A DNA stretch of 64,000 nucleotides from Candidatus Xianfuyuplasma coldseepsis (GCF_014023125.1 NZ_CP048914.1:708698-772697), one strand, 5' to 3'; shown: positions 2,265-21,847, counted from the first letter of the stretch. Numbers and translations are program-made. The notes: generated by a model not told the origin, from the sequence alone.

Positions 2265-2293
2265 TTGACATCAATCGATTATTAAGATATCAT
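2265..2293 (+). promoter_or_regulatory. Sigma70-type promoter (TTGACA-17-TATCAT) for the oxidoreductase gene
   Basis: -35 TTGACA at 2265-2270, a 17-nt spacer, and -10 TATCAT at 2288-2293, about 58 nt upstream of the ATG at 2352. Confidence 0.5.
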
Positions 2294-2351
2294 TACAGTG
2301 TAAAGTTTGTTTTACATATAGTAAACCAAACACGACAAGGAGGAAATAAAT

Positions 2352-3335
2352 ATGAAAGCAATGTATTGCCCCAAATATGGCGGCCCAGAAGTATATAGAC
2401 TAATGGATGTTGAACAACCAATACCATCCGAGAACGAGATTCTTGTTGAAGTCTATAGAAGCATCGTCTCCCCAACGGATGTGAATTTCCGTTCTGGTAA
2501 ACCATTTGTCGCTCGTTTATTTAGCGGACTGACAAAACCGAAGAAGACCATTCATGGAGAAATGTTTGTTGGCAAAGTCGTTCAAGTTGGTAGTGGTGTT
2601 ACAGAATTTAAAGTAGACGATCTGGTGTATGGTACCAACGGAATGAAGCTTGGAGCGTATGCAGAATATGTCGCAGTTGATACAAAAGAAGCCATCAAGA
2701 AAGTTCCAAATGATATCAAGTATAAAGATGCCCTTCCACTATTGGATGGAGGTATAACCGCATTACCTTTTCTGAGGGAACTCGCAAAAGCGAAAAAAGG
2801 AGATACTGTTTTAATTAATGGTGCTTCTGGGGCTGTTGGTTCCATGGCTGTTATGATTGCAAAGCACCTTGGATGCCATGTAACCGGTGTATGTAGTACC
2901 AACAATGTAGAGGCTGTTATGAATGTAGGTGCTGATGAAGTGATTGATTATACCAAAGAGGATTTCACACAAAATAAAAACACCTATGATATAATTTTTG
3001 ATACCGTAGGGAAAGCATCCTACTCGAAAGCCAAACAAGCCCTCACTGAACATGGTCTCTTTATAACTACTGTGCCTACACCAGGAATCATGCTTCAAGC
3101 ATTATTCAAAAAGAACAGTACCAAACGAAGAGCTAGTTTCATGGCTGCGGGTTTACGAAAACCAGCACAAAAAATCAGTGATCTTGAGTACCTCGAAGAA
3201 CTTATCCGTAACAACGAATTAACACCATTACATGGTAACGAGTATCCATTATCAAAACTAGGTGAAGCTCAAACCTATGTCGAAACAGGTCACAAAGTGG
3301 GAAATGTAACAGTAATCGTAAAAAAAGAAGCCTAA
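2352..3335 (+). CDS. Zinc-binding/MDR-superfamily NAD(P)H quinone oxidoreductase or alcohol dehydrogenase
   Basis: 327 aa. The Rossmann motif GASGAVGSMAVMIAKHLG is present and the overall architecture is MDR-like. Confidence 0.75.
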   Translation: MKAMYCPKYGGPEVYRLMDVEQPIPSENEILVEVYRSIVSPTDVNFRSGKPFVARLFSGLTKPKKTIHGEMFVGKVVQVGSGVTEFKVDDLVYGTNGMKLGAYAEYVAVDTKEAIKKVPNDIKYKDALPLLDGGITALPFLRELAKAKKGDTVLINGASGAVGSMAVMIAKHLGCHVTGVCSTNNVEAVMNVGADEVIDYTKEDFTQNKNTYDIIFDTVGKASYSKAKQALTEHGLFITTVPTPGIMLQALFKKNSTKRRASFMAAGLRKPAQKISDLEYLEELIRNNELTPLHGNEYPLSKLGEAQTYVETGHKVGNVTVIVKKEA

Positions 3336-3355
3336 AATAGGCTTCTTTACTTTAT
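3325..3355. terminator. Rho-independent terminator hairpin (AAGAAGCCT-loop-AGGCTTCTT) overlapping the oxidoreductase stop codon
   Basis: A 9-bp perfect stem followed by a T-rich tract (tactttatatt). A near-identical copy occurs at 4734-4763. Confidence 0.6.
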
Positions 3356-3403
3356 ATTGTTCCTAGAATAAGTGGGTGAAAAACCATCCATTCGGTCTCT
3401 AGA

Positions 3404-3955
3404 TCAAATAGTTACTTTTTTGATGGAAACGAAGTGAAAATATGAATTAAACTCTTGATACAAAAAGGTCTCTTGATAATCCACTTCTAAACAGTGCTTT
3501 GATTTCGTAATAATTTCATTCAAATGCTTAACTCTAAAACCACTCTCTTGTACAATGAGAACGAATCGCGCGTTATTCTTCATCTTATCGATAATTCGAT
3601 TAATGGACCTTGTTTCCTCGGCAATATCGTTTTTATAAAAATGAAACATCGAATTCATTAAAATGATATCGTATTCTTGGAAACTCGCAAAATCTTTATA
3701 ATCTGTGACTTCACCAACGACATCTAATTTCTCTTTCGTTGCGATCTCATTTAATTGATTGATTCCAACATCGGATATATCTATTCCTCTTACAGAAAAT
3801 CCCATACGACCTAACTCTAGAGTATCCCTCCCTTGTCCACAACCTACATCTAATATCATACTCGATCGATCAAATCGATCAAAATAACGTATTAATTCAG
3901 GATATGGTTTTCCAAAATAATTAGCCTTTTTATAGTACTTATTATATGAAGACAT
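3404..3955 (-). CDS. Class I SAM-dependent methyltransferase, TehB-like
   Basis: Motif ILDVGCGQGRDTLELGRMGFSVRGIDIS, compared with the TehB signature LDLGCGNGRNS. The start was moved to the internal ATG at 3955 (MSSYNKYY), which has a GGGAG RBS. The ORF-track extension to 4162 runs over the tRNA-like remnant. Confidence 0.6.
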   Translation of the reverse strand: MSSYNKYYKKANYFGKPYPELIRYFDRFDRSSMILDVGCGQGRDTLELGRMGFSVRGIDISDVGINQLNEIATKEKLDVVGEVTDYKDFASFQEYDIILMNSMFHFYKNDIAEETRSINRIIDKMKNNARFVLIVQESGFRVKHLNEIITKSKHCLEVDYQETFLYQEFNSYFHFVSIKKVTI

Positions 3956-4073
3956 GAAATCACTCCCTACGATAATTCTAGCAAAATTCAATGCATATTT
4001 AAAGGTAATTAATCCGTGTGCTTTATATGAAAACAAAAAAAGAAGCAATAACTGGCATCTTTTATTTATATAA

Positions 4074-4150
4074 TGGTAGCGGTGACAGGATTTGAACTGT
4101 ACCAAAGATTTAGAGACCCAAAATGTAATACTTACTCTACCTCCACATAA
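4074..4150 (-). pseudogene. Degenerate tRNA-like remnant, roughly 75% identical to the 3' half of tRNA-Trp. Probably an old att scar.
   Basis: The reverse complement ends ...GGTACAGTTCAAATCCTGTCACCGCTACCA. This T-arm and 3' end resemble tRNA-Trp (GTACGGGTTCAAATCCTGTCACCCCTGCCA), but the acceptor stem cannot pair and the anticodon arm is degraded. Confidence 0.5.
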
Positions 4151-4183
4151 ATAAAGAAACATTCCACGAGGAGTATTTCAGAA

Positions 4184-4621
4184 TTATCCTTTAATATATT
4201 CAAAATCAATTACTACCTTAGATTTTGGCAAATAAGTGATTGATATCTCATCACTAACTTTAGGCATCTTATCTTTACATAGAATGTAGAACTTAATACC
4301 ATTAACAACAAAAACTAATGTATTGTGACCCCTTGTATCAAACCAAACAAAATCATAGACTTTAGAAACTTCTCCTTTGAGTACCTTAGTGTTTAAGTGC
4401 ATATCATCTATGAGTTTTAACCCTCTTATTAATCTTGGTATCATAATGATGTTTAACCCTATCATTATAAATCCACTAACTAAGACAAATGTTGTATCTA
4501 TAGCTTCAATAACATAACCAAGAGTGAAAAATAATGAGAGAATCATTGTTAAAATAATTGCCCCCAACGGCCTATAGAACAAGTCTTTCTTATAGTTTCT
4601 ATACTCTTTTAGTATATTCAT
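4184..4621 (-). CDS. Small membrane protein (2 TM helices plus a C-terminal soluble domain), unknown function
   Basis: 145 aa. Hydrophobic helices at about 20-40 and 45-65. No known motif. Confidence 0.45.
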   Translation of the reverse strand: MNILKEYRNYKKDLFYRPLGAIILTMILSLFFTLGYVIEAIDTTFVLVSGFIMIGLNIIMIPRLIRGLKLIDDMHLNTKVLKGEVSKVYDFVWFDTRGHNTLVFVVNGIKFYILCKDKMPKVSDEISITYLPKSKVVIDFEYIKG

Positions 4622-4733
4622 GCTACCCCTCCAATACTCAACATTATAGTAATTATATCACATCTAGAAATCTAATGTAAGACAGCAAATGCACAATGGT
4701 CTTATCGATATAATTGTGTACATCACAAACAAA

Positions 4734-4763
4734 AAGAAGCCTATCTTGGCTTCTTTACTTTAT
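4734..4763. terminator. Second copy of the AAGAAGCC...GGCTTCTT hairpin, A-run on the left and T-rich on the right. The likely native bidirectional terminator abutting the att site.
   Basis: An 8-bp stem with flanking AAAAA (4731-4735) and TTTACTTTATAT. It is identical in stem and 3' flank to the 3325-3355 hairpin. Confidence 0.5.
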
Positions 4764-4767
4764 ATAG

Positions 4768-4815
4768 TGGCAGGGGTGACAGGATTTGAACCCGTACTAA
4801 CGGTTTTGGAGTCCG
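4768..4815. repeat. attL: 48-bp direct repeat copying the 3' end of tRNA-Trp (47/48 identical to 21773-21820)
   Basis: TGGCAGGGGTGACAGGATTTGAACCCGTACTAACGGTTTTGGAG(T/A)CCG is present at both positions. Confidence 0.85.
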
Positions 4816-5207
4816 ATTATATGTTTTTTCAGCACTCCAATAAGCTAGTAAAGTTCATTACCTTACCCTATACAATAATTATACTAAAGAAAGCGGGTGA
4901 TAACAACATAGACGCACCACAAAAACAGGTCCACTCCCTGGCACGACTATTAAGGGGAGTATGAATTGCAACAAGAGTTCCAAAGTTAAAAGAAAGGATG
5001 TTGCAATCGGTGATCATGTCATAAACTGGCTACCACATTGCCTTCGGGAAAGGGTGGCACTAAACAATGTTAGGCTCTGTTCAAATACAGACTTCATAAG
5101 ACCTACAGCATAAGTTGATCACTTAAACATGATAGTTCGGTACTGCCGCACCTATAAAGAAATCACTATAGTAATAATAAACGAAATAAGAAGAAAAGGA
5201 GAAGGAA

Positions 5208-6290
5208 ATGAAAAAGACGACATCCTTCAATAAAGATTTGTTTAAAAAAAGTTTAGTTAATAGTTTAAGTAATTATAAAGAGGGTTCTAAACAACAAGTA
5301 GAGCGCACTCCTAAGTATTCTACTGGAATAATTCCTTTGGATGATTTACTTGAAGGTGGTTTCCCAATGGGAAGCATAGTTGGCTTTGGTTCAGAAGCCG
5401 GTGTAGGAAAAACAACCATACTTTTACAAGCTTGTGCAAACATTGTTAAGAAGTACAACAAGACTGTTTACTACATTGATGTTGAGAATGGAGCAAAACT
5501 AGACTTGATCTACAAAATGGAATACACAGATATGTTGTACCATCCTGAATCAAATCCAGAAGGCAGGTTTTATCTACTATCATTCAAAACTATACAAGAC
5601 ATTGTGAGTTTTATTAACCAGGCTGCGAAAGGTCAAGATACTGCCGTAATTGTAATTGATTCTGTAACACAAGTTGTGGATGAAGAATCCAAAGAGAAAG
5701 ATGATTTGGATGTATCTAATAAACAAAAGGGAAAAATCGCAACAATGTGGTCTAAAGCATCAAGAGCTTTGAACACTATTATCGGTGACTCTGACATTAG
5801 TCTAATCATGGTTCATCAAGCAAGACAAAAACTAAACGACTTCAACCCTAAAACCACTTCTGCTGGTGGGAATGCTCTAAAACATATCACCTCAGTTGAG
5901 TTATGGGCAAAAAAGGGGAAATACATAAACGAGAAATATGTAACAGTTGACAAGGCGTCAAACTCAATAGGTTTCAATGTTAAACTTCAGAGTTTGAAGT
6001 CTAGATGTGGAGATTCGGACTCTTCAAGAAATCTAGTACTTTTCAAGGGTAAAGGCGCTGTTAATGTTTTTGCTGTAAAGGAATGGCTTGAAGAGTATCA
6101 GTATTATGATAAAAAGAAAGAGGAATACATCCCGTACTTCACTAAAAACGACCCTTGGAAGACATACAACATTCCTCAGTTAAGTATCTACATTAAGGAG
6201 AGATCTTATACAAAAATTCTTGAGCAGCTAAACTACCATAGAGATGAACTTATTCCATATGTTATACAACAACTCGAATCAAATTGGTAG
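5208..6290 (+). CDS. RecA-superfamily (KaiC/RadA/DnaB-C-like) ATPase
   Basis: Walker A GFGSEAGVGKTT, followed by YYIDVE and Walker B-like VIVIDSV. Strong RBS AAAGGAGAAGG. Confidence 0.6.
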   Translation: MKKTTSFNKDLFKKSLVNSLSNYKEGSKQQVERTPKYSTGIIPLDDLLEGGFPMGSIVGFGSEAGVGKTTILLQACANIVKKYNKTVYYIDVENGAKLDLIYKMEYTDMLYHPESNPEGRFYLLSFKTIQDIVSFINQAAKGQDTAVIVIDSVTQVVDEESKEKDDLDVSNKQKGKIATMWSKASRALNTIIGDSDISLIMVHQARQKLNDFNPKTTSAGGNALKHITSVELWAKKGKYINEKYVTVDKASNSIGFNVKLQSLKSRCGDSDSSRNLVLFKGKGAVNVFAVKEWLEEYQYYDKKKEEYIPYFTKNDPWKTYNIPQLSIYIKERSYTKILEQLNYHRDELIPYVIQQLESNW

Positions 6291-6483
6291 ATAATGCCTC
6301 AATAACAACTAAAATACTTATTATCATTATGGGTTCTCACAAATAAACAATCAAAAACACTCCTATATCAATGTGATTTAGAAGTGTTTTTGTAATAAAA
6401 ATCCCAGTAGCTTTCTCAAGATTAGTAAAATTAACCTCTAATCCGTAATTGTGAGAGAGTCACAACTATATTGATTATAGATA

Positions 6484-6966
6484 CTATAAATCATCAATTA
6501 TTTGTTTTCTTTTAGTGTTGTATTCATCCTCAGTGATAATACCTTTGTCTCTTAAAGAAGTTAACTTTTCTAGTCGCTCAGTAACGTCAGTATCTTGCTT
6601 CTGAATTTTCGGTTTAAAGTGTTTGGATTTATCTATCCTACTAAATCTTGTGTTCATAGATTCAAGATATTTATCAATCCATCTAGGTGCTGATTGGAAT
6701 CCAACAGATCCATCCATTGAGTCAGCTTGAATATTAACTTTCGTTCCATCTTCAACTCGACTAAAAGTAATTCTTAACTTGGCAGGATTCAATGGAGGAA
6801 AGAATTTCATTGGGCACTTAATTACTATTGAACCAATTCCCCTATTGTTGCTAACTACCTTACCAATGTCGTTACCAGCATTTATGCATAAGTTAAATGC
6901 ATCATCAAATTCTAAAGGTAGGACCATTTCTCTAGTCCCCTTTTTAAACATTGTACCTACTAACAT
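6484..6966 (-). CDS. SHOCT-domain protein (uncharacterised N-domain plus a C-terminal SHOCT oligomerisation motif)
   Basis: The C-terminus LEKLTSLRDKGIITEDEYNTKRKQIIDDL matches the SHOCT pattern. RBS GGAGGTG. Confidence 0.5.
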   Translation of the reverse strand: MLVGTMFKKGTREMVLPLEFDDAFNLCINAGNDIGKVVSNNRGIGSIVIKCPMKFFPPLNPAKLRITFSRVEDGTKVNIQADSMDGSVGFQSAPRWIDKYLESMNTRFSRIDKSKHFKPKIQKQDTDVTERLEKLTSLRDKGIITEDEYNTKRKQIIDDL

Positions 6967-7135
6967 GTTACACCTCCATAATCCTATATTAAACCAGAAG
7001 TAATCATGTAATCAATAAAAACTGCTTACAAAAAGTCCCGCACAGTGTAATTTTTCATAAAAACTTGATCATTCTTCACCAAGAAAGACATTAAAGGGGG
7101 ATGTATTTTCCTTCCCAAACATACTAACTACAGAG

Positions 7136-7471
7136 TTAGACTTCGTTAGCTCCATCAATGTACTTGTCATAATCGATGTCTTTGGTTTTATCAAGACTGA
7201 TAAAAGTAACCTTATCAGCTACAACTGTTAAGTCTTTTACGATGATCTCTAAGTGTGCCTTAACTCCGATCATGCTTCCAACCTCGATATGTTCTTTAAT
7301 AGCATTTGATAAATGCCTAGATAGTCTTACATTAATCTCATCAGTGTGGTTTTCTGTTTCGTTTACATTAGTAACCAACAACGAGATTAATAACTCTTCA
7401 GGATTTCCAGCACTAGTAACAAAGTCATATATACCAGTAACCTTACCTACCAAAATGACTTGATTCAACAT
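7136..7471 (-). CDS. SSB-like OB-fold protein (short)
   Basis: The N-terminus MLNQVILVGKVTG... resembles the SSB start (MxNxVxLxGRL). The start was set at the ATG with an AAAGGAG RBS. The track ORF begins at an upstream TTG. Confidence 0.45.
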   Translation of the reverse strand: MLNQVILVGKVTGIYDFVTSAGNPEELLISLLVTNVNETENHTDEINVRLSRHLSNAIKEHIEVGSMIGVKAHLEIIVKDLTVVADKVTFISLDKTKDIDYDKYIDGANEV

Positions 7472-7559
7472 GGAAATCAACTCCTTTCAACTATAGTTGA
7501 TGTATTAAGTATAACCGGTTAAGCGCCTAAATGCAGCCCTAAAATAGAAAAAGATGATA

Positions 7560-8234
7560 CTATTGAACTGTATCATCTGTATTCTCTGTATTTGACTTCT
7601 TAGGTGATTTTATTTTCTTGATTGTCACTTTCACTATGTTTTGTAGAACCAGAAAATCTTGTTTGACATCTGTCTTTATTACATCTAGAGTTAAGTATCC
7701 TTTACGAACCAGTACTATTGTTACTACACCACTACCTGTTATCGAAATCCAAAAGAATGATAGGAAGATATAATGAGAGCCAAGTAAATCCCATCTAGTA
7801 ACTTCAATGAATGAAGCATAATGATCGTTGGTATAAAATAACTGCTCACTTGAGAAAACAAATCGCTCAGCACCAACATCATCTGTTGTGGCATTGATAT
7901 ATGCTTCAGTATATGAATATCCGTCTGGTAGTAAAACTGGATCTCTAGTATTGTCGTATACAGCATAAACTGTTACATCGTATTCCCCAGGAGCAACTCC
8001 TTGTGACTTAGGCACGTAATTGCTAGGCAATTCATCATACTCTAGTATATACATTGCGACATGATCATAATCAGTATATGTTTTATAACGTCTAGCATTC
8101 ACATCTGTACTCATTGACATAATTAACAGAAAAAGTACCACAGGAAGGAAAATGTATCTTATCCTTCTTCTAAATGACTCTTGTTCTAAACTTAAAAGAA
8201 ACTTGTCTATACTATCTCTAATCTTCTGATTCAT
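7560..8234 (-). CDS. Membrane protein: N-terminal TM, a roughly 120-aa extracytoplasmic domain, and a C-terminal TM plus Lys-rich tail
   Basis: 224 aa. Hydrophobic segments IFLPVVLFLLIMSMS and IFLSFFWISITGSGVVTIVLV. Its start overlaps the upstream gene by 17 nt. Confidence 0.5.
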   Translation of the reverse strand: MNQKIRDSIDKFLLSLEQESFRRRIRYIFLPVVLFLLIMSMSTDVNARRYKTYTDYDHVAMYILEYDELPSNYVPKSQGVAPGEYDVTVYAVYDNTRDPVLLPDGYSYTEAYINATTDDVGAERFVFSSEQLFYTNDHYASFIEVTRWDLLGSHYIFLSFFWISITGSGVVTIVLVRKGYLTLDVIKTDVKQDFLVLQNIVKVTIKKIKSPKKSNTENTDDTVQ

Positions 8235-9420
8235 CCACTTTATCCATAAGGAACTTTACAGCAGATGTAACTGAGTTCAAATTGAATCTATGATTACTAT
8301 CATATGCATTTGGGATACTGAACACTGCTCCAGCATCAAGTAGTACTTTAGCAATAGCAAGTCCATCTTCAAAATTCACTTCTTCTAAGGCTAGATCTAG
8401 AGATTTCTTATCAACTATGTTGATCAATGCTTTGACAGCCATCAAGTCGTTTGCTTTTACTGCATCAATGATTCCATTGGACATCTGATGTTTGTTAAGA
8501 TTCATATTAGATACTCTATCTTGAACGTATGCTCGATCATTAATTTTCAAGAGATTCTCAACAGTCTTTAGATCATAGTTATCATATAGGAACTTAGCAC
8601 ACTCTGTAGCCTCATAATTAATCGCAAAGTCAAACATGTCCTTGTTCACATTATATTTGCTTCTATCGAGGAAGTACTTAAGAATATGTACTACATCTTT
8701 CTCTATTGCAACCTGAACTAGTTTAGGGACACCCCTGTCTCCCATTCTCACTAATCTTAATTCGGGAATAAGTTTTAATGTCTCGTCATTGGTACAAGCT
8801 AGAACGGCAGAAACGTATTCCTTCATATTCTCTGAGAGGTTTGCATACATGGGTAAAATTTTCTTACCTATTCTTAGCGAACCGCTTCTCTCTGATAATC
8901 TAGGTATCTCTAATTTACCATGATGATAACTAACAACATTGCCTTCTTCATCTTTTATCGGAGTACGGAAACTCGACTGTAGTAATTTCAAATCGTTGTT
9001 CTTAATAAGAAATGCAACAAATCGAGGATTGTTATTCAGTGACTCAATGATAAGTTGTTTAGAAAAGAGAAATTTGAATTTCTCTAAATCGTTACTCTCA
9101 ATACAATAGTCTAATAATGTCTTACCATTACTATCAGGCTGTTCAGGAGCCAAATCTGGATTGATTTTATCAATGTCTTGGTTATAAAACTTGCTTAACA
9201 TTGTTTCTCGCTCTGAACCAGCATATAGGATGTCATCCACTTTTACATCTAGAAACTCTGCAATCATCATTAGGTTCGAGATCTCAAATGAACTCTTACC
9301 ACTTAAATTCTGAGATACTGCTTGTTTGGATATACCAAGATAATCAGCCAAATTCTCTTGTGTATGTCCCTTTAATCTGAGTTGCTCTTTGATAAATTTT
9401 CCAATTTCAACTGTGTTCAT
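8218..9420 (-). CDS. XRE-family HTH protein with a large alpha-helical (possibly ankyrin-like) C-terminal domain
   Basis: The HTH is GHTQENLADYLGISKQAVSQNLSGKSSFEISNLMMIAEFL. Ankyrin-like segments include GLAIAKVLLDAGAVF. The start was set at ATG 9420 (MNTVEIGKF), 7 nt after AGGAGG. The track ORF starts further upstream. Confidence 0.6.
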   Translation of the reverse strand: MNTVEIGKFIKEQLRLKGHTQENLADYLGISKQAVSQNLSGKSSFEISNLMMIAEFLDVKVDDILYAGSERETMLSKFYNQDIDKINPDLAPEQPDSNGKTLLDYCIESNDLEKFKFLFSKQLIIESLNNNPRFVAFLIKNNDLKLLQSSFRTPIKDEEGNVVSYHHGKLEIPRLSERSGSLRIGKKILPMYANLSENMKEYVSAVLACTNDETLKLIPELRLVRMGDRGVPKLVQVAIEKDVVHILKYFLDRSKYNVNKDMFDFAINYEATECAKFLYDNYDLKTVENLLKINDRAYVQDRVSNMNLNKHQMSNGIIDAVKANDLMAVKALINIVDKKSLDLALEEVNFEDGLAIAKVLLDAGAVFSIPNAYDSNHRFNLNSVTSAVKFLMDKVDESED

Positions 9421-9668: not shown

Positions 9669-10766
9669 TTAGAATGGCAGATCATCTTCCGACACTTCAA
9701 TATAAACAGGTTTCTTTTCATTAATACGTACTTCAAGTAGTTTGTTTTGAAAAGAATGTATTAATGCATCCAATAATTCTTCATTTTTGTCTTTCAATGC
9801 TTCGTATATTTTATTTAAAACTTTGATATCTTCAACAGGAATTCCAACATTGCATTTAACTTTTATATCTAAGGAATCAAAAAGATCTTCAGCTCTAACA
9901 GAATGTTCAAACCAATTCCTTTTTATCAATATGTTTAGATTGTCTAAAATCTCTTTAATTGATGCAATACTAAATTCATTATAGACATTAAATCGGGGTT
10001 CAAAATGAACATCTCCATTCCAAATTTCTAATCTATCATAAAATATACTTACCATACTATCTAAAGCCTGTTGTCTCAACTCATCATAATTAATCTCTGG
10101 TTTAGTTTTATCTAAAGGAGATTCTTCGATGGAATCTTTGTTTTCTTCATCGTAATCAATGGTTATTTGAAGTTCTTTCTCTAGCTTATTAAGCTGCCCT
10201 CCATCTATTATTGACATTGAAAAATTAGTTTCATCTAGAAACTCAGTTTTCAAAGCATTAGAGTTGTTTAGAAATCCTTTGTCGGATGTTATAAAGTATA
10301 GGTTTTGATATTTCTTCATTTCAAAGTACTCTAGAAGACTAATCCATATCATACTATCTTTAAAACCTTTGTCGCTTGCATTCTCATTGCTGTTGAAAGG
10401 TGGTAACTTATATCGATCTCTTTCAAGTAACTTGTCAAGCATCTTTTTCTTATTGTAGCTGATAACTTTATCCTTAAAATGATGATCAATATATTTATCA
10501 AGTGACTTCTCATAAAGTATTATCTTGTCTTCAAGATTTACTTTATTATTTATCTCAACATACTCTACTAACTCTTCTTTTAGTACCTCTATTTTTTCAT
10601 AAGATTTTTTTATGTCTCTTGCTTTAATGTTCTTAATCTCTTTAACAACAATTTCAGGGACAAAAACATCATATTGTTTTTTACACTCTACTATAAATCT
10701 TGTTATGTAATTGTCCTTTCGTTGTTCTATTAGAAAATTTGTATCTATTACAATAGCATTTTCCAT
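9669..10766 (-). CDS. PIN-like nuclease domain protein (N-terminal PIN-like, roughly 190-aa uncharacterised C-domain)
   Basis: An N-terminal IVIDTNFLI acidic motif, and a later FITSDKGF motif typical of the last PIN strand. 365 aa. Confidence 0.5.
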   Translation of the reverse strand: MENAIVIDTNFLIEQRKDNYITRFIVECKKQYDVFVPEIVVKEIKNIKARDIKKSYEKIEVLKEELVEYVEINNKVNLEDKIILYEKSLDKYIDHHFKDKVISYNKKKMLDKLLERDRYKLPPFNSNENASDKGFKDSMIWISLLEYFEMKKYQNLYFITSDKGFLNNSNALKTEFLDETNFSMSIIDGGQLNKLEKELQITIDYDEENKDSIEESPLDKTKPEINYDELRQQALDSMVSIFYDRLEIWNGDVHFEPRFNVYNEFSIASIKEILDNLNILIKRNWFEHSVRAEDLFDSLDIKVKCNVGIPVEDIKVLNKIYEALKDKNEELLDALIHSFQNKLLEVRINEKKPVYIEVSEDDLPF

Positions 10767-10865
10767 TATATCTCTCCATCCAAGCCTAATTTAAGTATTT
10801 TCATAAACCAGTTCAATCGTTTCACAATGTACTAGTCTTATGAATTTATACTACCTAGCCTTCTT

Positions 10866-11327
10866 CTATTTTCTTTTCACCCATTTTGCCTCACCCTTTT
10901 TTTTAAAGAGTGTAATAAAATATGATTCAACTGCCGGTGCCATCCAATGTGGTTCTATCAAAAAAGATTTATAATATACAAACCTACTAGGAATTGGCAA
11001 AGTCATTATATAGTCATAGATTTTCTTTATGCAAGATTTTGTTTTTGCTTGAGTGTTTTGCACAATGTGAGACTTGATACGTGTGTTAATACCCTTTTTA
11101 TTTTCCTTCTTACCAATATATTGACACCTACCAAGGTTATCAAATATAAAATAGATGTTATTAGAAGAAGGTTCCAAGACCTTTGTATCTTTTCGTTTCA
11201 ATACTTGGTATCTTTTTGGTTTGTTGTAAACCATTCTTTTGAATTTAGATGGATTTTGAATGTCGTTTTCGATTGTGTCGAGAACGTTCTTTATACATGC
11301 AAAACCACTGAAATTGTAATCGGCCAT
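10866..11327 (-). CDS. Small GIY-YIG-like nuclease domain protein
   Basis: NIYFIFDNLGRCQYIGKKENKKGINTRIKSH matches the GIY-x9-YIG-x8-R-x3-H layout. A downstream ESYFI glutamate is present. RBS GAGGT. Confidence 0.5.
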   Translation of the reverse strand: MADYNFSGFACIKNVLDTIENDIQNPSKFKRMVYNKPKRYQVLKRKDTKVLEPSSNNIYFIFDNLGRCQYIGKKENKKGINTRIKSHIVQNTQAKTKSCIKKIYDYIMTLPIPSRFVYYKSFLIEPHWMAPAVESYFITLFKKKGEAKWVKRK

Positions 11328-11346
11328 AAACTACCTCTTCTTAATA

Positions 11347-12162
11347 CTAAAAATCTGCACTTATATGTGAAAGAGAAATTATTTTGGTTAGCAACAAATC
11401 AATAGACTCCTCTTTATACTTTCTTTCTTTCGACCAGTCTCTAATCTTCTTTATGAGAATTTCAATATCGCTTTTATTATCAACAATAATATATTCAATA
11501 TCTTTAATATCAAGTTTTAACTTGAAGGCACTTTTTAAGTCATCACGAATATCTTTGTTGAACAGGTTCATCTGTTCTTCCCAAATGAACAAACTTTTGC
11601 CTGTCGTATCTTCAAACACATTCTTATTCGGTACGAATCTCCATTCATTTTCTAGATAGTACCTAGTAACCTTATCATCTTTCCTGATTATCATTGGTTT
11701 TGAATAAGTTTTCATCAATCTTAGGTAGTTTAGAGCATTTGTTTGTAGATATAAAGAATCTCCATCTAGTACCTCTTTAGACATTTGATATTCTCTTGAA
11801 TCTGTCACTTTTGCCACCAATAATCTCATCTCAGTGTATATAGGCATCTCTGAGCTATAATACCAAAGTGGGGTCAACCCATTATGCAAACCCCAAGATT
11901 GCTTCATTCCAATGGCAATTCCACCATATTTTGTTTTGTGTTCTTTTATGCTTGTTAATGGGATATCACAAAAGCATACCATTGGGAAGGTACTCGATCC
12001 TAGTTCATCTATTAATTCAGAATCAAATAATTCTTCCTCAAACCCAAATAAATCATCAATTTGTTCTTTATTATAGAAGGGTATAAATCCATGTTCTAAA
12101 ATACTTATAATAGTGTCTATATCTCTTGTAAAATGAAACAATGAGTTAGTTTTATAAGCCAT
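11347..12162 (-). CDS. AbiGi-like abortive-infection family protein (tentative). Its start overlaps the hsdR stop.
   Basis: The N-terminus [29 protein letters not shown] resembles the AbiGi family N-terminus as I recall it. ATG 12162 is preferred because it has a GAGGT RBS. It overlaps the hsdR 3' end by about 11 nt. Confidence 0.4.
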
Positions 12163-15100
12163 ATTGTACCTCATTTTCACACACCAATTCAGTTTGTTCC
12201 ATAATCAATTTCACTGATCGATCGTAGTTGTTTGGGTCTGTTGGATCATCTGGTGGATACTTGTATTTCTTAAGTAGCACTTTGATTTCGAATCTCATTT
12301 TAGCTCTAACTGAATCTCTAATGTTCCAGTCTACGGTAGTGCTTGCTTTAATTTTAACAGTTAGCTCTTTGGCAATATCTTTGAGGACATCAATACCCAT
12401 TACCTCTTGAGCCTTGATGTTTGATGCAAGTGCTTGATAGAATGCATATTCATCTTCAGTGAGTCCAGATTCTTTACCAGCTTCAGCAGCTTTAGTAATA
12501 TCTTTTGCTAAGGCTATCAATTCTTCAATGACTATAGTAGAATCAATAAGTCTCTTGTGATATTTAGCTAGGGAATCCTCTAACATTTCAGAGAACAATC
12601 TTGACTGAACCACTGTTTTGCGTGAAAATGCTCTGATCTTACCTTGGATAAGACGTTTGAGAAGTTCAACTGCAACATTCTTATGATCCATGTTCTTGAA
12701 CTCTTCTAAGAACTCATCTGATAGGATAGAGATATCAGGTTTAGCTAAACCTATTTCAGACATAATATCTATAACCTTGTCAGATTTTAAGGACTTAGAA
12801 ATCAATTGATTCAACTCTCTATCGAGTTGGTCTCTTGATTTCTTTTTATTGTTATCAGTAGTAAGTTTGATAATTCCCGCTCTTACAGACTTATAGAAAC
12901 CTATCTCAACATTGTGCTTCTCTGCTGTTTCAGTAGTAGCACAAAGAGAGTAAGCTTTTGTGAGTTCTGAAGTTAGTTTGATATAATCTTCTTTTCTCTT
13001 AATCGATAAACCAACAATATAGTCTATTGTAGCCATAATGATTTTGAGTTTATCTGTCTGTCTACCTTTGAAATATAGAGAGTAGTCGAACCCATGAAGT
13101 AATTCTCGCACCAGTTCCAGTTTCTCCATCATAACAGAAACAGCTAGTTCTGTATCTACTCCAGTTTGTTCTCTATCACTATCTGTATATTGAGATAGAG
13201 CTTTTTTAAGACTTTCTGCAATACCTATATAGTCAACAATAAGTCCACCTTGTTTCTCTTTAAACACACGATTCACTCGTGCGATTGCTTGCATTAAGTT
13301 ATGTCCTTGCATAGGTTTATCAACATACATGGTATGTAAACTTGGAACATCAAATCCTGTAAGCCACATATCACGTACTATTACGAGTTGTAGTTCATCG
13401 TCATTGTCTTTCATACGTCTAGATAATGTATCTCTAGTTTGTTTATTACCGATATGTGTTTGCCAATGCTCAGGATCTGAAGAACTACCTGTCATAACGA
13501 CTTTTATTTTACCTTTCATCAACTCATCTGAAAGCCAATCAGGCCTTAGTGCAATAATTGCATCATGTAGTTCAACAGCAATTCTACGACTCATAGCTAC
13601 GATCATACCTTTTCCAACTTCGGTTTCCATAGAAGCTTGACGTTTTTCAAAATGTTCTACAAGATCTTTAGCTACAACCTTAATTCTAGGTTCAGCTCCA
13701 ACAATTGCTTCTAACCGTGCCCATTTACGTTTGAGACCTTCTTTTTGGACATCTTCTTGGTATTCGGTTATATCATCATAATTCTCATCTATAAGCTCGT
13801 ATTCTTCAGTGAAGTCAATTCTCGCTATGCGGCTTTCGTAGTAGATTTTAACGGTTGTTCCATCTTCCACTGCACGGGTCATATCATAGACGTCAATATA
13901 GTCTCCAAAGACTGCTCTTGTGTTCTTGTCAGTAGTTTCTATTGGTGTACCAGTAAAACCAATATATGAGGCATTTGGAAGGCTGTCACGCATGTGTTTG
14001 GCATAGCCATACTTCTCATATGCCTCTTCTTTTGTTTTTACAACTTCAGCTTTAAAACCATACTGGCTTCGATGTGCCTCATCAGCCATAACAATAACGT
14101 TCTTACGTTCTGTTAAAGGTGTCACTAACCCTTCTTCGTTAGGAGCAAACTTATGTATAGTAGTAAAGATGATACCTCCTGAATCTCTACCATCTAATAG
14201 TTCTTTTAGATGGTCTCTTGATTCTGCTTGTTGTGGATAGGAACGTAATAAATCTTTTGACTTAGAGAACGTAGAGAACAATTGATCATCTAGATCATTT
14301 CGATCTGTTATTACAACAATAGTTGGATTTGATAGTTCTTGTGAGATTACCATCTTACCAGCATAGAAGACCATAGATAGTGATTTACCACTACCTTGTG
14401 TATGCCATATAACTCCAATACGTCTATCCCCATCTTCACTAGTAGCAGTATAAGTGCTTTCTAATGCAGTATTCACAGCATGGTACTGATGGTATCCAGC
14501 TAATATCTTATTGTAGTCATTGTTGTTCTCTTGGAACAAGATGAACTGTTTGATAATATCCATAAAGATATCTTTACGGAACATACCTTTTAGTAAGGTT
14601 TCTAGTTGAGGTAATACTTTAGGAGCAATATTAATACCATCTATTGTACGCCAAGACATATACCATTCTTCATTTGAAGTAATCGTACCAGCTTTAGCTA
14701 CGTGTCCATCACTAATAACATTGAATGCGTTGTAGACAAATAAATTACTAATAGATTTTTGATAGTTCTTGATTTGTCTGTAAGCATGATGAACTGTCAC
14801 CTTCTCATCCGAAGGTGTTTTAAGTTCGAAGACAACCAATGGTAAACCATTGACAAAAAGAACTATATCAGGACGTTTTTCAACTCTGTTCTCAACAACA
14901 GTGAATTGATTCACAGCAAGGAAGTCATTGTTCTCAATATTCTCAAAGTCAAAGAGTTGGATGTTTGGATATACTGTGCTTCCATCCTCTTCTTTATGTA
15001 GGACAGTAACTCCCTCATTAATCATCTTATGAAAGGCATGATTATTAGCAATCAAAGATACTTGTTTAGGAATGGTGATCTCTCTAATCGCATCTTCAAT

Positions 15101-15304
15101 GACTTGTCTTGGAACTGTATCATTAATACGAAGAAGCGCTTCTCGTAAGCGCTCAATTAATATTACTTCTTCATATGAATCCCTTTCAGGATATTCCCCG
15201 TCAAATGAGATATTAGGACCAAACTCAATATTGTATCCTAATTCTTCTAGCCACTGTAAAGCAGCTTCCTCTACATCCGACTCATAAAATACTTTTACTC
15301 CCAT
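12152..15304 (-). CDS. hsdR: Type I restriction enzyme R subunit (HsdR)
   Basis: About 1050 aa with a DEAH box ([10 protein letters not shown]) and SF2 helicase motifs. Operon position after hsdM/hsdS. ATG at 15304 with a GAGGGG RBS. The track start at 15319 is a TTG. Confidence 0.9.
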
Positions 15305-15308
15305 TTCA

Positions 15309-16634
15309 TCACCCCTCAATAGGTACTTCTATCTCTCCACTCATTAGTTTTGGTAATAGTGTATCTCTAGTTATGGTTAACACTTCATTCTCTTTACCAT
15401 TCTGCTGTATTTGTTCATAAGTATCCAAATAAAAACTAGCTAGTCTGTCTATCCATTCTTTGTTTGGGATTACAATCTTGTATTCATTCAATATAAACTT
15501 CAAATCAAAATTCTTTATTCCAGTAGTCCCATTCTCATAATTGAAGAAAACATTATTGTTATACAAGTATTCAAAAGTAAGACTTATATAAGGTGATAAA
15601 TTTATGTCTTTTGGCTCAATAGCTCTACAAAAATTAGTGCATATAACCTTATCATTATATCTATGTATAAATTCTTTTGATATCAAAGCTGTTCTACCAG
15701 TCGACTGTTTAGGACTTCCCCCCGATATCTCAACTACTATATCTCCAGCTTTCAATTTCTTCTTGAGAAAGTTCTTATTAAGTATATATCTGGTTGGGCA
15801 TTTTCCTTTATCCCCAACTTTGATTGAGTTTATATCTGCACCTCTAATACACACAACTTCAGAAGTATAGTTACCAGTTATTGCTTCTTTACCCCAGTCA
15901 CCTGCAATCGTTGTAGCTACAAGATCTCCTAGACTCCCGACTTCCCATCCTCTAGGAATTAATCCCAAGTCACTTTCTATCATTTCTCCACCACTAGATT
16001 TATATGGTTCTCCATCTTCATTAGGATACTCAAAATCAACAAACCATTGTTTATATAATGCTTGTGCCATTTCTTCAAGGTTCTTATTGATTTTGTTGTT
16101 AAGTTCTATTTTGTCATCAAGTGATGATAAGATGTTTGATATTGTTTTTTGTTCCGCTAAAGGTGGTAAAACAACATTAATATTTTTAATGTTTTTTATA
16201 GGTAATTTTGCTTGTACCGCCCCTACAGTTCCCATTCTAATTTCTTGAATACCATTGGGTGAGTTCAAGTAATAATAAAGAAATCTATAGTCAATTTTCT
16301 CAGAATGATTTGTTAATTTAACGCAATTTTCTGTCAAACTTGCATTATCCAATGTTTTACCTACTATACCCGTTAAACCTATAGTCCCAACTATGGATAA
16401 TAGTACATCTTTATAATTAGTAATGTACCGTGAAATATTACTAAATGTCTCCTCAATAATATATTGAATCCCATCAAATTTCTCAAGTTTTGTAATATTA
16501 TTCAAATCTCGCACACGAATATATGGATGTGTAGTTTTATAATCTACTAAAGAATGTCCTTTAGGTAATCTCTTCCCGCCCTTTATCTCAACTATTTCTT
16601 CTAATTTTACATTTCTCCAATCATCATAACTCAT
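15309..16634 (-). CDS. hsdS: Type I R-M specificity subunit (HsdS), two TRDs
   Basis: Conserved central [14 protein letters not shown] and C-terminal LLPKLMSGE motifs. Overlaps hsdM and abuts hsdR. Confidence 0.9.
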
Positions 16635-18111
16635 AACCTATTCCCCTTAAGTTCTCCTTGATTTTTTCCTCAAGAGATTTAGATTCTTCAAATAGGTCTG
16701 ATAATTCTGAAGTAAGTCTATCCATTTTCTCTTCAAATGGAATACCATCATCTTCCTCTTCTTCAATACCTACATAACGTCCAGGAGTTAAAACATAGTC
16801 ATGTAACTTAATTTCTTCAATTGTAGATGATTTGCAGAATCCATCAACATCTTCATAATTTTCTTCATTTTTCCAATTATGGTAAGTAGTGTAGATTTGT
16901 TCTATCTCTTCATCTTTTAATTCTCTATGTTTTCGCGTTTCCATATATCCCATTTTACGAGCATCTATAAATAATACTTTATCTTTTCTACCGTTCTTAT
17001 TTTTGGAAACAAACCATAAGGATACAGGAATAGCCACATCATAGAATAGTTGTGAAGGCATAGCTACAATACAGTCTACTAATCCTTCTTCTAGGATTGA
17101 TTTACGGATATCGTACTCCTCACTTCTTGATGTTGATAAAGAACCATTAGCTAAAACAAATCCAGCAGTACCTCTTGGACTTAATTTACTTATCATATGT
17201 GAAATCCATGCATAGTTCGCATTTGTTTTTGGTGGAACTCCCCATTTCCATCTAACATCATCTAATAAATGAGGTTGTCCCCAGTCTTTAATATTAAAAG
17301 GTGGATTGGCTAATATATAATCTACTTTCAATGTTTTATGTTGATCGTTAGTAAATGTATCTCCATCTCTTTCACCAAGATTTGCATCAAGTCCTCTGAT
17401 TGCAAGATTCATTTTTGCTAGTCTCCATGTAGTAGCTACATATTCTTGTCCGTAAATTGAGATATCACCAAGTCTACCTTGATGTTCTTCAACAAACTTT
17501 GCAGATTGCACAAACATACCACCACTACCACAACAAGGGTCATATACTCTACCTTTATAAGGTTCAATCATATTTACTAATAATTTAACAATACTGGGTG
17601 GTGTATAAAACTCACCTTCCGTACTACCAAACTTCTTAAGGAAGTACTCATATACTCTACCTAACACATCTTTAGCTCTTGCTTCCTTACTTCCTACGTT
17701 AAAAGAGAATAGGTCTACCAACTCACCTAATCGTGTCTTATCTAGAGCTGGTCTTGCATAGTTCTTAGGTAAGACATTTTTTAATGGAACATTCTCACGC
17801 TCAATAAGGATCATTGCATTATCGATTACTTGTCCGATAGTAGGTTGTTTCGCTTGTGACTTAATATAATCCCATCTAGCTTCTTTCGGTACGAAGAATA
17901 CATTCTCAGACTCGTATGCATCTCGATCTTCTTCCATACCAGGATAGACTTGCTTCACTTCGTTATATCGTTCTTCAAAGGAATCAGAGATGTACTTCAA
18001 AAAAACAAGCCCCAATATAACGTGTTTATATTCAGAGCTTTCAATATTACCCCTTAACTTATCTGCCATTTCCCACAGTTTATTCTCGAATCCTAAATTT
18101 ACTTTTGCCAT
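16624..18111 (-). CDS. hsdM: Type I R-M N6-adenine DNA methyltransferase (HsdM)
   Basis: NPPFN catalytic motif and the HsdM N-terminal domain. 495 aa. Confidence 0.9.
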   Translation of the reverse strand: MAKVNLGFENKLWEMADKLRGNIESSEYKHVILGLVFLKYISDSFEERYNEVKQVYPGMEEDRDAYESENVFFVPKEARWDYIKSQAKQPTIGQVIDNAMILIERENVPLKNVLPKNYARPALDKTRLGELVDLFSFNVGSKEARAKDVLGRVYEYFLKKFGSTEGEFYTPPSIVKLLVNMIEPYKGRVYDPCCGSGGMFVQSAKFVEEHQGRLGDISIYGQEYVATTWRLAKMNLAIRGLDANLGERDGDTFTNDQHKTLKVDYILANPPFNIKDWGQPHLLDDVRWKWGVPPKTNANYAWISHMISKLSPRGTAGFVLANGSLSTSRSEEYDIRKSILEEGLVDCIVAMPSQLFYDVAIPVSLWFVSKNKNGRKDKVLFIDARKMGYMETRKHRELKDEEIEQIYTTYHNWKNEENYEDVDGFCKSSTIEEIKLHDYVLTPGRYVGIEEEEDDGIPFEEKMDRLTSELSDLFEESKSLEEKIKENLRGIGYEL

Positions 18112-18128
18112 AATTAGTACCTTCCTCT

Positions 18129-18488
18129 CTATTTATATACTTCCCTTAAAGATTTTCCTTTGCTATTTACTATTTCATCCCATGCTTTTGTAGTTATGTA
18201 CCCTAAAAAAATACATGCAGCTCTATTGGGTGATGAAAAAACCTCATCAGTTTGTAATTCGTAATAGTTTTGATCATACTCTTGAAGAACCCCTTTGTTT
18301 AGTAAATCTCTTCTTGAGCGTTCAATCCAATTACAGTCAGTCCATTTTTTAGTAATTATAGGTTCTCTTTTCATCAAGGAGCCTTTATGTACTATAACTT
18401 CATTATCTTTACCTTTGGTTTCTCCCGTACCTATATAACTTATAGTAGCAATTAACATACCTTTGTTATTTTTTAGATAAAAATCCAC
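18129..18488 (-). CDS. Small protein leading the hsd operon, DUF4357-like (tentative)
   Basis: 119 aa. The C-terminal VFSSPNRAACIFLGYITTKAWDEI resembles, from memory, the DUF4357 motif seen upstream of hsdM genes. GTG start with a GGTGGTGAG RBS. Confidence 0.4.
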   Translation of the reverse strand: MDFYLKNNKGMLIATISYIGTGETKGKDNEVIVHKGSLMKREPIITKKWTDCNWIERSRRDLLNKGVLQEYDQNYYELQTDEVFSSPNRAACIFLGYITTKAWDEIVNSKGKSLREVYK

Positions 18489-18528: not shown

Positions 18529-18557
18529 ATTATATCAAAAAATGAACGTAAGTTAAA
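18529..18557 (-). promoter_or_regulatory. Putative promoter of the hsd operon (extended -10 TGaTATAAT on the minus strand, weak -35 TTTAAC)
   Basis: Reverse complement ...TTTAAC-17-TATAAT, about 40 nt upstream of GTG 18488. Confidence 0.35.
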
Positions 18558-18869: not shown

Positions 18870-19430
18870 ATGAGAATAGGATATATGAGAGTATCAACAG
18901 TCGCTCAAAACTTAGATACACAGAAAGCGGCTCTGGAATCATATGGAGTAGAAAGAATCTTTGAAGAGAAAGCGTCTGGAAGAAACATTGAAAGACCAGT
19001 CCTTAAGGAGTTGCTTAAGTTCATCAGATCAGGGGACACGCTTGTAATATATGATTTATCTAGACTGGGTAGGACAGTACATCAAGTTGTAAAATTATTA
19101 GATGACTTCATAAAAAGAAACATTGGTTTCGTATCGCTTAAGGAATCACTGGACATAACCACACCGATGGGTAAAGCAATGGCACACATAATTGCAGTGT
19201 TTAATCAAATGCAAGTGGATGTTCAAAATGAAAAGACTAGAGAAGGACTACTAATCGCAAAAGCAAATGGTAAAAAACTTGGGAGAAAAGCCATTACTCA
19301 AGATAAGATTCTAATGATACAAGCATTATGTAAAGAAGGGTATTCGAATCAAGAAGTTGCAGATAAATTAGGAGTCTCAAGAAGAACTGTAATTAACTAC
19401 AAGAAGGGCTCTAAACAGATAAAAAACTAA
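18870..19430 (+). CDS. Small serine recombinase (resolvase/invertase family)
   Basis: MRIGYMRVSTVAQNLDTQ N-terminal catalytic motif (S10), and a C-terminal HTH (GYSNQEVADKLGVSRRTV). 186 aa. Confidence 0.85.
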   Translation: MRIGYMRVSTVAQNLDTQKAALESYGVERIFEEKASGRNIERPVLKELLKFIRSGDTLVIYDLSRLGRTVHQVVKLLDDFIKRNIGFVSLKESLDITTPMGKAMAHIIAVFNQMQVDVQNEKTREGLLIAKANGKKLGRKAITQDKILMIQALCKEGYSNQEVADKLGVSRRTVINYKKGSKQIKN

Positions 19431-20450: not shown

Positions 20451-21683
20451 ATGAAGGAGTTGATAAAAGTGAAAATGAATCAAGCCCTAGATAATTTTTT
20501 AAAGCTGAAAGAGGCAACGTTTAAACCTGAAACTGTAAGATACTATAAAGGAAAGATACCTACGATTAAGAAGTTCATGGGTAATCTAGATGTTGAAGAA
20601 GTAACAGATGTTGACATTGCAGACTTTCTACTCAAACTCAAAGAAAGAAACCCGGAAATCTCCAAACGAACACAAAGGAAATACGTTGACATCATCATGA
20701 GTATAGTCAACAAAGGAAAAAAAGAAGCTGATAAACTTAAATTTACCAGACCAAAACCTGTTTTGAAAAAGATTAAAAAGGTATCAGATGAAAACATAGC
20801 TCTGATACTTAATTACTATGTATCAAATCTTAGCTATGCAAATAATCACAAGTACTACTTGTTAATCAATCTTCTTCTTGATACAGGTGTCCGCATTAAT
20901 GAACTAGTAAACATTAAGATGAAGAACATCAATCTATCTATGAATAGCATCCATCTAGATGTGACCAAGACAGATTCAGATCGAACTGTGTATTTTAGTG
21001 ATAGGACAAGACAAATACTTCTAAGCTACATTAACAAACACATTGATGGTCACGAATATCTCTTCTACAGCCAGGATGGTAAGGGTCATATTCATAGAGA
21101 CTCTGTATACAAATCTATAGCGAGATTGCAAAAAAGACTAAACATAAAACAATCAATAAGTCCACATAAGTTTCGTCATGCTTTTGCAACAAAGCTTCTT
21201 AGAAAAACAGGTGACATCGAAGTGGTAAGACAATTGCTTGGGCATAAGCATCTTGAAACCACACAAATATATCTAGACTATGAAGACGAGTACTTGAAGA
21301 AGGTCTACGATAAAGCAATGAATAACAATGGTATGTATAATGCCAAAAATCAAAATAAGGAGGATCAAGATTTGAGCAAAGCTAAAGTACTTCAAGATCA
21401 TTATCAAGTGAAATGTGATGTGTGTAACACAGACATAAACACTCCAAAAGATGACATACAGATATATTGTCCAAAATGTGGATCAGTTATCACAGTGTTA
21501 CACGATAAAGACAATCATGCTTATGCAATTGAAACCGGAGTTCTTGTTGCATCTTCATTTCTCCCTGGAGAACCTAAGAAATATGTTATACACAAAGATG
21601 GTAATCGAGGTAACAATAACGTTGCAAATCTACAATGGAGCGATCACCCCGACTATCCAAGCCAAGATAAACAAATCAACTAG
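20451..21683 (+). CDS. int: Tyrosine site-specific integrase with a C-terminal Zn-ribbon plus HNH_3-like extension
   Basis: R (TGVRINEL), HKFRHAF, and LGHKHLETTQIYLDY catalytic motifs. The C-terminal roughly 120 aa contain CDVC...CPKC and HKDGNRGNNNVANLQW. The true start is possibly GTG 20469 or ATG 20475, after AAGGAG. Confidence 0.85.
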   Translation: MKELIKVKMNQALDNFLKLKEATFKPETVRYYKGKIPTIKKFMGNLDVEEVTDVDIADFLLKLKERNPEISKRTQRKYVDIIMSIVNKGKKEADKLKFTRPKPVLKKIKKVSDENIALILNYYVSNLSYANNHKYYLLINLLLDTGVRINELVNIKMKNINLSMNSIHLDVTKTDSDRTVYFSDRTRQILLSYINKHIDGHEYLFYSQDGKGHIHRDSVYKSIARLQKRLNIKQSISPHKFRHAFATKLLRKTGDIEVVRQLLGHKHLETTQIYLDYEDEYLKKVYDKAMNNNGMYNAKNQNKEDQDLSKAKVLQDHYQVKCDVCNTDINTPKDDIQIYCPKCGSVITVLHDKDNHAYAIETGVLVASSFLPGEPKKYVIHKDGNRGNNNVANLQWSDHPDYPSQDKQIN

Positions 21684-21772
21684 GTAATACATAAAAATGG
21701 TATGTACTAGCGGTCATTTCAAGACTAGAGCAAATAAAAAAGCAAACCTAATGGCTTGCCTAAGCTCTTAAG

Positions 21773-21847
21773 TGGCAGGGGTGACAGGATTTGAACCCGT
21801 ACTAACGGTTTTGGAGACCGCTGTGCTACCATTGACACCACACCCCT
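21773..21847 (-). tRNA. tRNA-Trp: tRNA-Trp (CCA anticodon), the integration target
   Basis: Reverse complement AGGGGTGTGGTGTCAATGGTAGCACAGCGGTCTCCAAAACCGTTAGTACGGGTTCAAATCCTGTCACCCCTGCCA. The acceptor stem pairs, and the anticodon loop is CTCCAAA. Confidence 0.9.

Follow-up and report, generated by a model that had tools for sequence, protein, structure and literature searches.

In a stretch of 64,000 nucleotides (nt) from the genome of Candidatus Xianfuyuplasma coldseepsis (GCF_014023125.1, NZ_CP048914.1:708698-772697), here referred to as the window, positions 10,866 to 18,488 are occupied by a Type I restriction-modification (R-M) operon that carries three small additional genes at its ends. 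The operon comprises six tightly packed open reading frames (ORFs), all on the minus strand, in the order DUF4357-like leader, hsdM, hsdS, hsdR, AbiGi-family gene, and GIY-YIG nuclease gene. We consider it probable that the three small genes are unrelated to one another and were recruited into the hsd unit as independent second-line defense cargo, rather than forming one machine. A previous interpretation of the locus, made from its sequence alone (the sequence-only reading), had proposed a new accessory module of Type I systems, which is not supported: the arrangement is of a known kind, and the locus adds a new example to an already described phenomenon, that of add-on genes on Type I operons. 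The same interpretation had counted seven genes in this range, and the seventh co-directional gene, coding for a PIN_12-domain protein, begins 99 nt past it.

The core of the operon is a Type I system that looks intact, since full-length family matches were obtained for hsdM, hsdS, and hsdR. The methyltransferase subunit HsdM (16624 to 18111; 495 amino acids) presents an N6_Mtase domain (1.8e-108, profile positions 2 to 311 of 311) and an HsdM_N domain (2.1e-26) and matches MTase_I of PADLOC (2.3e-226). The specificity subunit HsdS (15309 to 16634; 441 amino acids) is composed of two target recognition halves, with Methylase_S matched in two stretches (1.1e-32) and PADLOC Specificity_I along residues 4 to 439 (2e-86). 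The restriction and translocase subunit HsdR (12152 to 15319) is 1,055 amino acids long from a TTG start, a likelier ATG being located at 15304, and it contains HSDR_N (9e-51), SWI2_SNF2 (5.9e-81), T1R_D3-like (2.7e-22), and T1RH-like_C (3.1e-115) domains, reaches 1,121 bits with PADLOC REase_I, and ends with a C-terminal domain of the HindI-like family. The occurrence of the HsdM domains, of an HsdS with two target recognition domains, and of an HsdR that combines a nuclease, a superfamily 2 motor, and a C-terminal assembly domain assigns the system to Type I. In such systems the DNA of the host is methylated by HsdM2S and incoming DNA that lacks the modification is cut by HsdR, and the HsdMSR core of this operon would be expected to do the same.

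The tight co-directional packing noticed in the sequence-only reading was confirmed, as all the ORFs are present on the same strand with overlaps or gaps of at most 19 nt. In particular, the leader is separated from hsdM by 17 nt, hsdM and hsdS overlap by 11 nt (16624 to 16634; ATGAGTTATGA), and hsdS and hsdR overlap by 11 nt if the TTG start of the latter is used or are separated by 4 nt if the likelier ATG is. The reported overlap between the start of the AbiGi gene and the stop of hsdR is real and extends for 11 nt (12152 to 12162; ATGGCTTATAA), with the ATG of the AbiGi gene at 12162 and a GAGGT ribosome-binding site seven bases 5' of it. An overlap between the AbiGi and GIY-YIG genes had been proposed as well, but these two are separated by 19 nt, and the GIY-YIG gene has a GAGGT ribosome-binding site of its own. 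The form of the 11-nt overlap is common to hsdM/hsdS and hsdR/AbiGi, which is probably a coincidence.

The six genes may well be co-transcribed. No intrinsic terminator was predicted by a terminator scan between the genes of the operon, and a promoter-like site on the minus strand (18529 to 18556), about 40 nt 5' of the leader start and formed by TTAACT, a 16-nt spacer, and an extended -10 element (TG-TATAAT), is a candidate for the operon promoter, being a consensus match only in a region where such sites occur at chance level (64 found versus 61 expected). At the other end, the 99 nt that separate the GIY-YIG and PIN_12 genes contain a long imperfect RNA hairpin (10782 to 10862, minus strand) of -22.7 kcal/mol (z, -3.9), a stability equaled by none of 200 shuffled sequences. 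This hairpin has no T-run and was not called an intrinsic terminator by the scan; it may mark the 3' boundary of a six-gene transcript, or it could serve to process or stabilize this transcript. The following PIN_12 gene (9669 to 10766, minus strand; 365 amino acids; PIN_12, 8.9e-21), whose product has no PADLOC match, is probably a separate cargo gene.

The first of the additional genes, the leader (18129 to 18488), encodes a DUF4357-like protein of 119 amino acids from a GTG start, or 109 amino acids from an alternative ATG. Its match to Pfam DUF4357 (PF14267) covers profile positions 1 to 38 of 54 with an E value of 4.3e-6 and 27 bits, below the cutoff of 38.4; the homology is backed by the PDC-S14 profiles of PADLOC and by a precomputed PF14267 tag on the 109-amino-acid copy in Logan, which is the only database copy of the leader, no NCBI protein record being present. 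Four PDC-S14 profiles are matched, always in the C-terminal 110 or so of about 300 positions: the best match (1.1e-11) aligns leader residues 22 to 117 with positions 205 to 294 of 301, and a second one (1.6e-9) aligns residues 4 to 117 with positions 188 to 297 of 305. It is again the C-terminal part (positions 208 to 276 of 303) that is matched in the phage family phrog_12629. The PDC-S14 candidates are single proteins of about 300 amino acids in which a nuclease is joined to DUF4357; different from them, the leader has no nuclease half, either in the polypeptide or in the upstream DNA, and is not a PDC-S14 member. Since DUF4357 is found elsewhere fused to nucleases (in the literature, GmrSD, McrB, GIY-YIG, and T5orf172 nucleases, with the GIY-YIG and T5orf172 fusions among the published architectures of PMC4619093), a role of the leader in DNA recognition is suggested.

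As a stand-alone DUF4357 domain, the leader could be what is left of a truncated gene or, alternatively, a small accessory protein that binds DNA. In the former case, a gene of about 300 codons located upstream of hsdM and coding for a nuclease-DUF4357 protein would have lost its 5' half by recombination, so that only the hsd promoter region and a translatable tail remain. Such an origin is suggested by the restriction of the match to PDC-S14 profile positions of about 188 to 305, by the stop codons lying directly 5' of the leader in DNA where no nuclease-domain remnant was found, and by a serine recombinase gene located 380 nt away. The rarity of the leader points in the same direction: besides the lack of an NCBI record, a word-index search of 5.8 billion proteins returned nothing beyond its own copy, and tblastn gave no match in plasmids or phages. 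On the other hand, the frame is open across the whole domain, it is accompanied by a plausible ribosome-binding site and a promoter-like site, and it stops shortly before hsdM, as a first cistron would. We regard a remnant as a serious possibility, somewhat short of an even chance.

The gene following hsdR (11347 to 12162) codes for a protein of 271 amino acids, annotated by NCBI as the same 271-amino-acid AbiGi product, whose membership in the AbiGi family is clear from Pfam AbiGi (PF10899; 3.1e-26, 93 bits versus a cutoff of 22.4), PADLOC AbiGi (1e-43, positions 8 to 277), and phrog_13416 (2e-39). The Pfam and PADLOC families are shared with AbiG of Lactococcus lactis pCI750, which is made up of AbiGi and AbiGii. 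The relation to lactococcal AbiGI holds at the family level only, because the score against the corresponding NCBIfam equivalog (NF042957), 62.9 bits, is far below the cutoff of 300. Moreover, different from lactococcal AbiG, no AbiGii partner adjoins the gene: AbiGii was not found with Pfam and PADLOC in the flanking hsdR, GIY-YIG, and PIN_12 genes, and in a PADLOC scan for it among the other ORFs of the whole window, UvrD-helicase models dominate the 25 families listed. According to a 2026 review (PMC13064643), the mechanism of lactococcal AbiG is unexplained, and its trigger is a phage major tail protein.

The absence of an adjoining AbiGii, which the sequence-only reading had pointed out, is thus real, but it is not unusual, a solo gene being the norm across 80 homologs from species-representative genomes, where at least 548 AbiGi relatives occur. 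These homologs are mostly solo or placed beside varied defense genes. In 36 of the 80 there is no same-strand neighbor within 150 nt, and the 53 tightly linked neighbors include TIR_2 (7), EAD11 (6), and S9 peptidases (4), together with single cases of BrxL, a reverse transcriptase, and Abi_C; the 25 commonest families listed for these 53 neighbors do not include AbiGii. The tight linkage of TIR-domain genes to AbiGi in 7 of the 80 genomes (L016 to L095), often together with EAD11, would fit an NAD-related role of the AbiGi family. Homologs are also carried by 68 viral or prophage contigs (L100 to L167). At another locus (L002, 4653 to 8822), an AbiGi homolog with 48% identity follows a three-gene cluster whose first protein has a weak match to ABC-3C CTD7 and whose last protein contains a Lamassu-like DUF3732/LmuB_C domain.

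The family alignment of AbiGi highlights the invariant enzyme-like residues C65, D66, H75, E171, E173, and R175, where E171 and E173 form a conserved ExE-type pair of acidic residues. Furthermore, the N-terminal motif SLFHFT..L..IL..G aligns with DarT1, a similarity to DarT that is weak (E value, 0.14), and the AbiGi family has been listed as ADP-ribosyltransferase (ART)-like (bioRxiv 10.1101/2024.07.30.605764). The listing, the motif, and the ExE residues are features common to AbiGi and to DarT and other toxins with an ART fold, and on the strength of the literature and of the weak motif match we predict a putative ART-like fold for the protein. Pfam labels AbiGi as a putative antitoxin. Because of the ART-like listing, the invariant enzyme-like residues, and the DarT1-like motif, the protein appears to fit an effector better than an antitoxin, and the Pfam label is misleading for a family whose members are, moreover, mostly solo.

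The last gene (10866 to 11327) encodes a protein of 153 amino acids belonging to a rare, unannotated family. By sequence profile alone, it remains below the Pfam GIY-YIG cutoff (16.2 bits versus 22.6; E value, 0.013), and its sole PADLOC match is UzuA (0.0019). An exhaustive search of 1.84 billion cluster representatives retrieved 19 family proteins with an E value of 1e-3 or lower, in whose alignment Y59, Y70, G72, and H87 are invariant, R83 is nearly so, and E134 is invariant among the eight closer members. The protein presents all the catalytic residues expected of a GIY-YIG nuclease (the GIY Tyr, the YIG Tyr-x-Gly, Arg, His/Tyr, and Glu), and the family profile matches the GIY-YIG domain of UvrC with the motifs in register (E value, 0.007). 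The alignment-based AlphaFold model has a GIY-YIG fold (predicted local distance difference test [pLDDT], 84.2; predicted template modeling score, 0.82) and was used instead of the single-sequence model, which was poor (pLDDT, 55). The closest fold is that of T4 endonuclease II (EndoII; DenA); compared with this enzyme and with the other minimal GIY-YIG nucleases considered (the UvrC N-domain, PD-T4-3, and Eco29kI), the identity is 14 to 20%, and the protein represents a distinct rare family with its own N-terminal extension of about 50 residues. Different from T4 EndoII, it is not phage encoded, its gene being a neighbor of R-M genes. Fold and motifs are consistent with a minimal EndoII-like GIY-YIG DNA endonuclease, which would be active as such. 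The domains that the sequence-only reading had assigned to the three small proteins were therefore essentially right by hidden Markov model (HMM) searches, PADLOC, and fold, with the qualification that in Pfam only AbiGi exceeds its cutoff, whereas GIY-YIG and DUF4357 are matched below theirs.

The independence of the additional genes is suggested by the way their relatives are distributed. We examined 155 loci with AbiGi homologs (80 species-representative genomic loci, 68 viral loci, and 7 loci of five closer homologs), and none of them contains a gene of the GIY family according to tblastn and the family HMM; conversely, tblastn revealed no AbiGi homolog in any of the 13 GIY-family loci. 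As co-occurrence is absent in both directions, the pair in the window, the only one seen, appears as a one-off juxtaposition, contrary to the two-gene module put forward in the sequence-only reading. For the GIY family, loci could not be recovered by a word-index homolog search, which found only the 153-amino-acid protein itself, by scans of genomes, metagenomes, and viral contigs with back-translated motifs, or by tblastn against plasmids and phages; the contexts were obtained by looking up the exact proteins matched in the exhaustive search.

Although the two genes do not recur together, each of them has relatives that neighbor R-M genes elsewhere, as had been anticipated. The closest AbiGi homolog (57% identity; L001) is located 4 nt after an EcoEI-type hsdR, which belongs to a different HsdR family, and is followed by a PDC-S49-like gene. 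A GIY member with about 50% identity over the nuclease core, listed in 39 blocks of the collection, is the last gene in loci with the order hsdM-hsdS-x-hsdR-SLATT-SMODS (L007 to L009; approximately 1000 to 8500), where the hsdR-SLATT-SMODS-GIY backbone is identical and the gene between hsdS and hsdR is PDC-S30-like, DUF5677, or PLDc_2. This variation gives the locus the appearance of a hotspot for cassette swapping within a Type I system. One of these three loci has a second SMODS-SLATT pair just upstream of hsdR. Another GIY member (L099) is found 225 nt after hsdS, a further one near a DpnII-type R-M system, and the remaining members are beside genes of no assigned function or on contigs too short to judge. 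Since R-M genes thus adjoin the GIY-family gene in four of the seven informative contexts, this rare EndoII-like family (about 19 cluster representatives in 1.84 billion) is a reasonable candidate for a defense or R-M accessory function.

The PDC candidates of PADLOC derive from genes that lie embedded within Type I R-M, BREX, and DISARM systems (Payne 2024, bioRxiv 10.1101/2024.01.29.577857). As in that "guilt-by-embedding" survey, an hsd unit hosts small non-hsd genes, internally or at its ends; the leader matches PDC-S14 of the same catalogue, and the corresponding positions of related loci are occupied by PDC-S30 and PDC-S49 genes. Different from the embedded cases, the additional genes of the window stand before hsdM and after hsdR and not between hsd genes. 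The window therefore contributes one well-defined example of Type I R-M operons serving as docking sites for extra defense genes, in which the aspects worthy of attention are the recurrence of the EndoII-like GIY-YIG family beside R-M genes and the coupling between hsdR and the AbiGi gene. The classic case of a defense gene embedded in a Type I R-M operon is PrrC in EcoprrI. The additional genes show no similarity to PrrC or RloC, and neither ABC-ATPase nor anticodon-nuclease domains were found in the three small proteins with Pfam, PADLOC, and NCBIfam.

Taking these elements together, we consider it probable that add-on genes settle at the ends of Type I operons, where they make use of the operon promoter. 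The AbiGi protein would be a stand-alone effector, predicted to have an ART-like fold, and its synthesis would be coordinated with that of HsdR, given that its start codon falls inside the hsdR stop region. The GIY-YIG gene product would act as a minimal EndoII-like DNA endonuclease, and the leader would be either a small DNA-binding accessory or a remnant, which in the latter case would still supply the promoter region of the operon.

Some observations weigh against such independent cargo. Lactococcal AbiG needs both AbiGi and AbiGii, and a solo AbiGi may not protect alone. Among close relatives, the lack of co-occurrence is based on small numbers, as context is available for just five members of the close AbiGi clade and the informative contexts of the GIY family are seven, and the large numbers come from distant AbiGi homologs, with 27 to 34% identity. 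The neighbors of the 80 genomic homologs were called with a simple, crude ORF picker. Finally, a tight linkage of the AbiGi gene to hsdR occurs in two HsdR families, as an 11-nt overlap in the window and as a 4-nt gap in L001, and its recurrence hints at a functional tie to HsdR over mere hitch-hiking.

The functional tie could take the form known from PrrC, with the Type I enzyme holding the ART-like AbiGi protein inactive until a phage anti-restriction protein disables HsdMSR, whereupon AbiGi would be released and the cell killed or arrested. The overlap of the AbiGi start with the hsdR stop, the position of the 57% homolog right after an hsdR of a different family, and the attachment to hsdR of two of five closely related AbiGi genes are in agreement with this possibility. 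However, the remaining three of the five do not adjoin hsdR; an hsdR is nearby in only 1 of the 80 genomic AbiGi loci, where it lies on the opposite strand, and in none of the 68 viral ones; and the lack of sequence similarity to PrrC or RloC also argues against it. We consider it unlikely that the enzyme is guarded in this way. If the hsdR-AbiGi coupling were functional, it would add, next to PrrC and RloC, a second type of guard for Type I enzymes, and a true guard of this kind would be the first ART-type backup wired to a Type I system. One could further suppose that this guard, whose gene would be translationally coupled to hsdR in two unrelated HsdR families, acts either on its own or jointly with the EndoII-like nuclease once phage anti-restriction proteins disable restriction, an extension to which we assign a rather low probability.

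A different relationship would link the two downstream genes to each other, as an abortive-infection or toxin-antitoxin unit in which the nuclease replaces AbiGii. In favor of such a unit, the two genes lie next to each other on the same strand, 19 nt apart, a ribosome-binding site is present, the nuclease is a plausible toxin, and the Pfam label of AbiGi, a putative antitoxin, would complete the pair. Yet in the loci examined the two families do not co-occur outside the window, the GIY members found elsewhere have quite different neighbors, and the enzyme-like residues and ART-like class of AbiGi suit an effector better than an antitoxin; a unit of this type seems improbable to us. Finally, the sequence-only reading had considered the leader and the 153-amino-acid protein as the two halves of a GIY-YIG/DUF4357 fusion, which as a split PDC-S14 gene would act in trans, and although the leader fits the C-terminal part of the PDC-S14 profiles and DUF4357 fusions to GIY-YIG and T5orf172 domains are published (PMC4619093), the idea is hardly credible because the 153-amino-acid protein does not match the PDC-S14 nuclease half (no match at an E value of 0.1 or lower, versus 1e-11 for the leader), and in addition leader relatives were found by tblastn in none of the 13 GIY-family loci and the two genes, one at each end of the operon, are separated by about 7 kb.

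As for its setting, the operon that would host these independent add-ons sits in an island of about 17 kb integrated at a tRNA-Trp gene, from about 4.8 to 21.8 kb of the window. The borders are assigned because a tyrosine integrase gene (20451 to 21683, plus strand; Phage_integrase, 4.2e-35) abuts the tRNA-Trp gene (21773 to 21847), and the 3' half of the latter is repeated at 4768 to 4812. The right-end attachment repeat lies in the 3' half of tRNA-Trp (21773 to 21817) and the left-end copy at 4768 to 4812, both belonging to the direct repeat family D1, whose two members (4747 to 4815 and 21752 to 21820) share 86% identity around an exact core of about 45 nt. The repeat occurs a third time in degenerate form (4053 to 4121; 68%), which points to an older remnant, about 0.6 kb long, next to the island.

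Divergent from the operon is the gene of a serine recombinase of resolvase/invertase size (18870 to 19430, plus strand; 186 amino acids), with Resolvase (7.8e-40) and helix-turn-helix (HTH) domains. The hypothesis that it flips the operon promoter was abandoned, as no convincing inverted repeats bracket the promoter region. The further cargo of the island, besides PIN_12, includes HTH regulators and HTH-ankyrin, weakly barnase-like, SSB-like, and RecA-like proteins. In particular, on the minus strand between 7560 and 9534, the gene of a 438-amino-acid protein with HTH and ankyrin regions overlaps by 17 nt that of a 224-amino-acid protein, which is hydrophobic in segments close to its two termini and weakly matches, below the cutoff, barnase-type ribonucleases (E value, 2.7e-4); the two could constitute a toxin-like pair. 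The far end of the island (5208 to 7480) encodes a RecA/KaiC-like ATPase (360 amino acids), a SHOCT-domain protein (160 amino acids), and an SSB-like protein (114 amino acids). The PADLOC scan of the other ORFs of the whole window also returned mad3 (6e-103), mad8 (3e-42), and a reverse transcriptase-associated helicase model (1e-111), which most likely correspond to housekeeping helicase or recombinase genes in the stretch from 45 to 60 kb.

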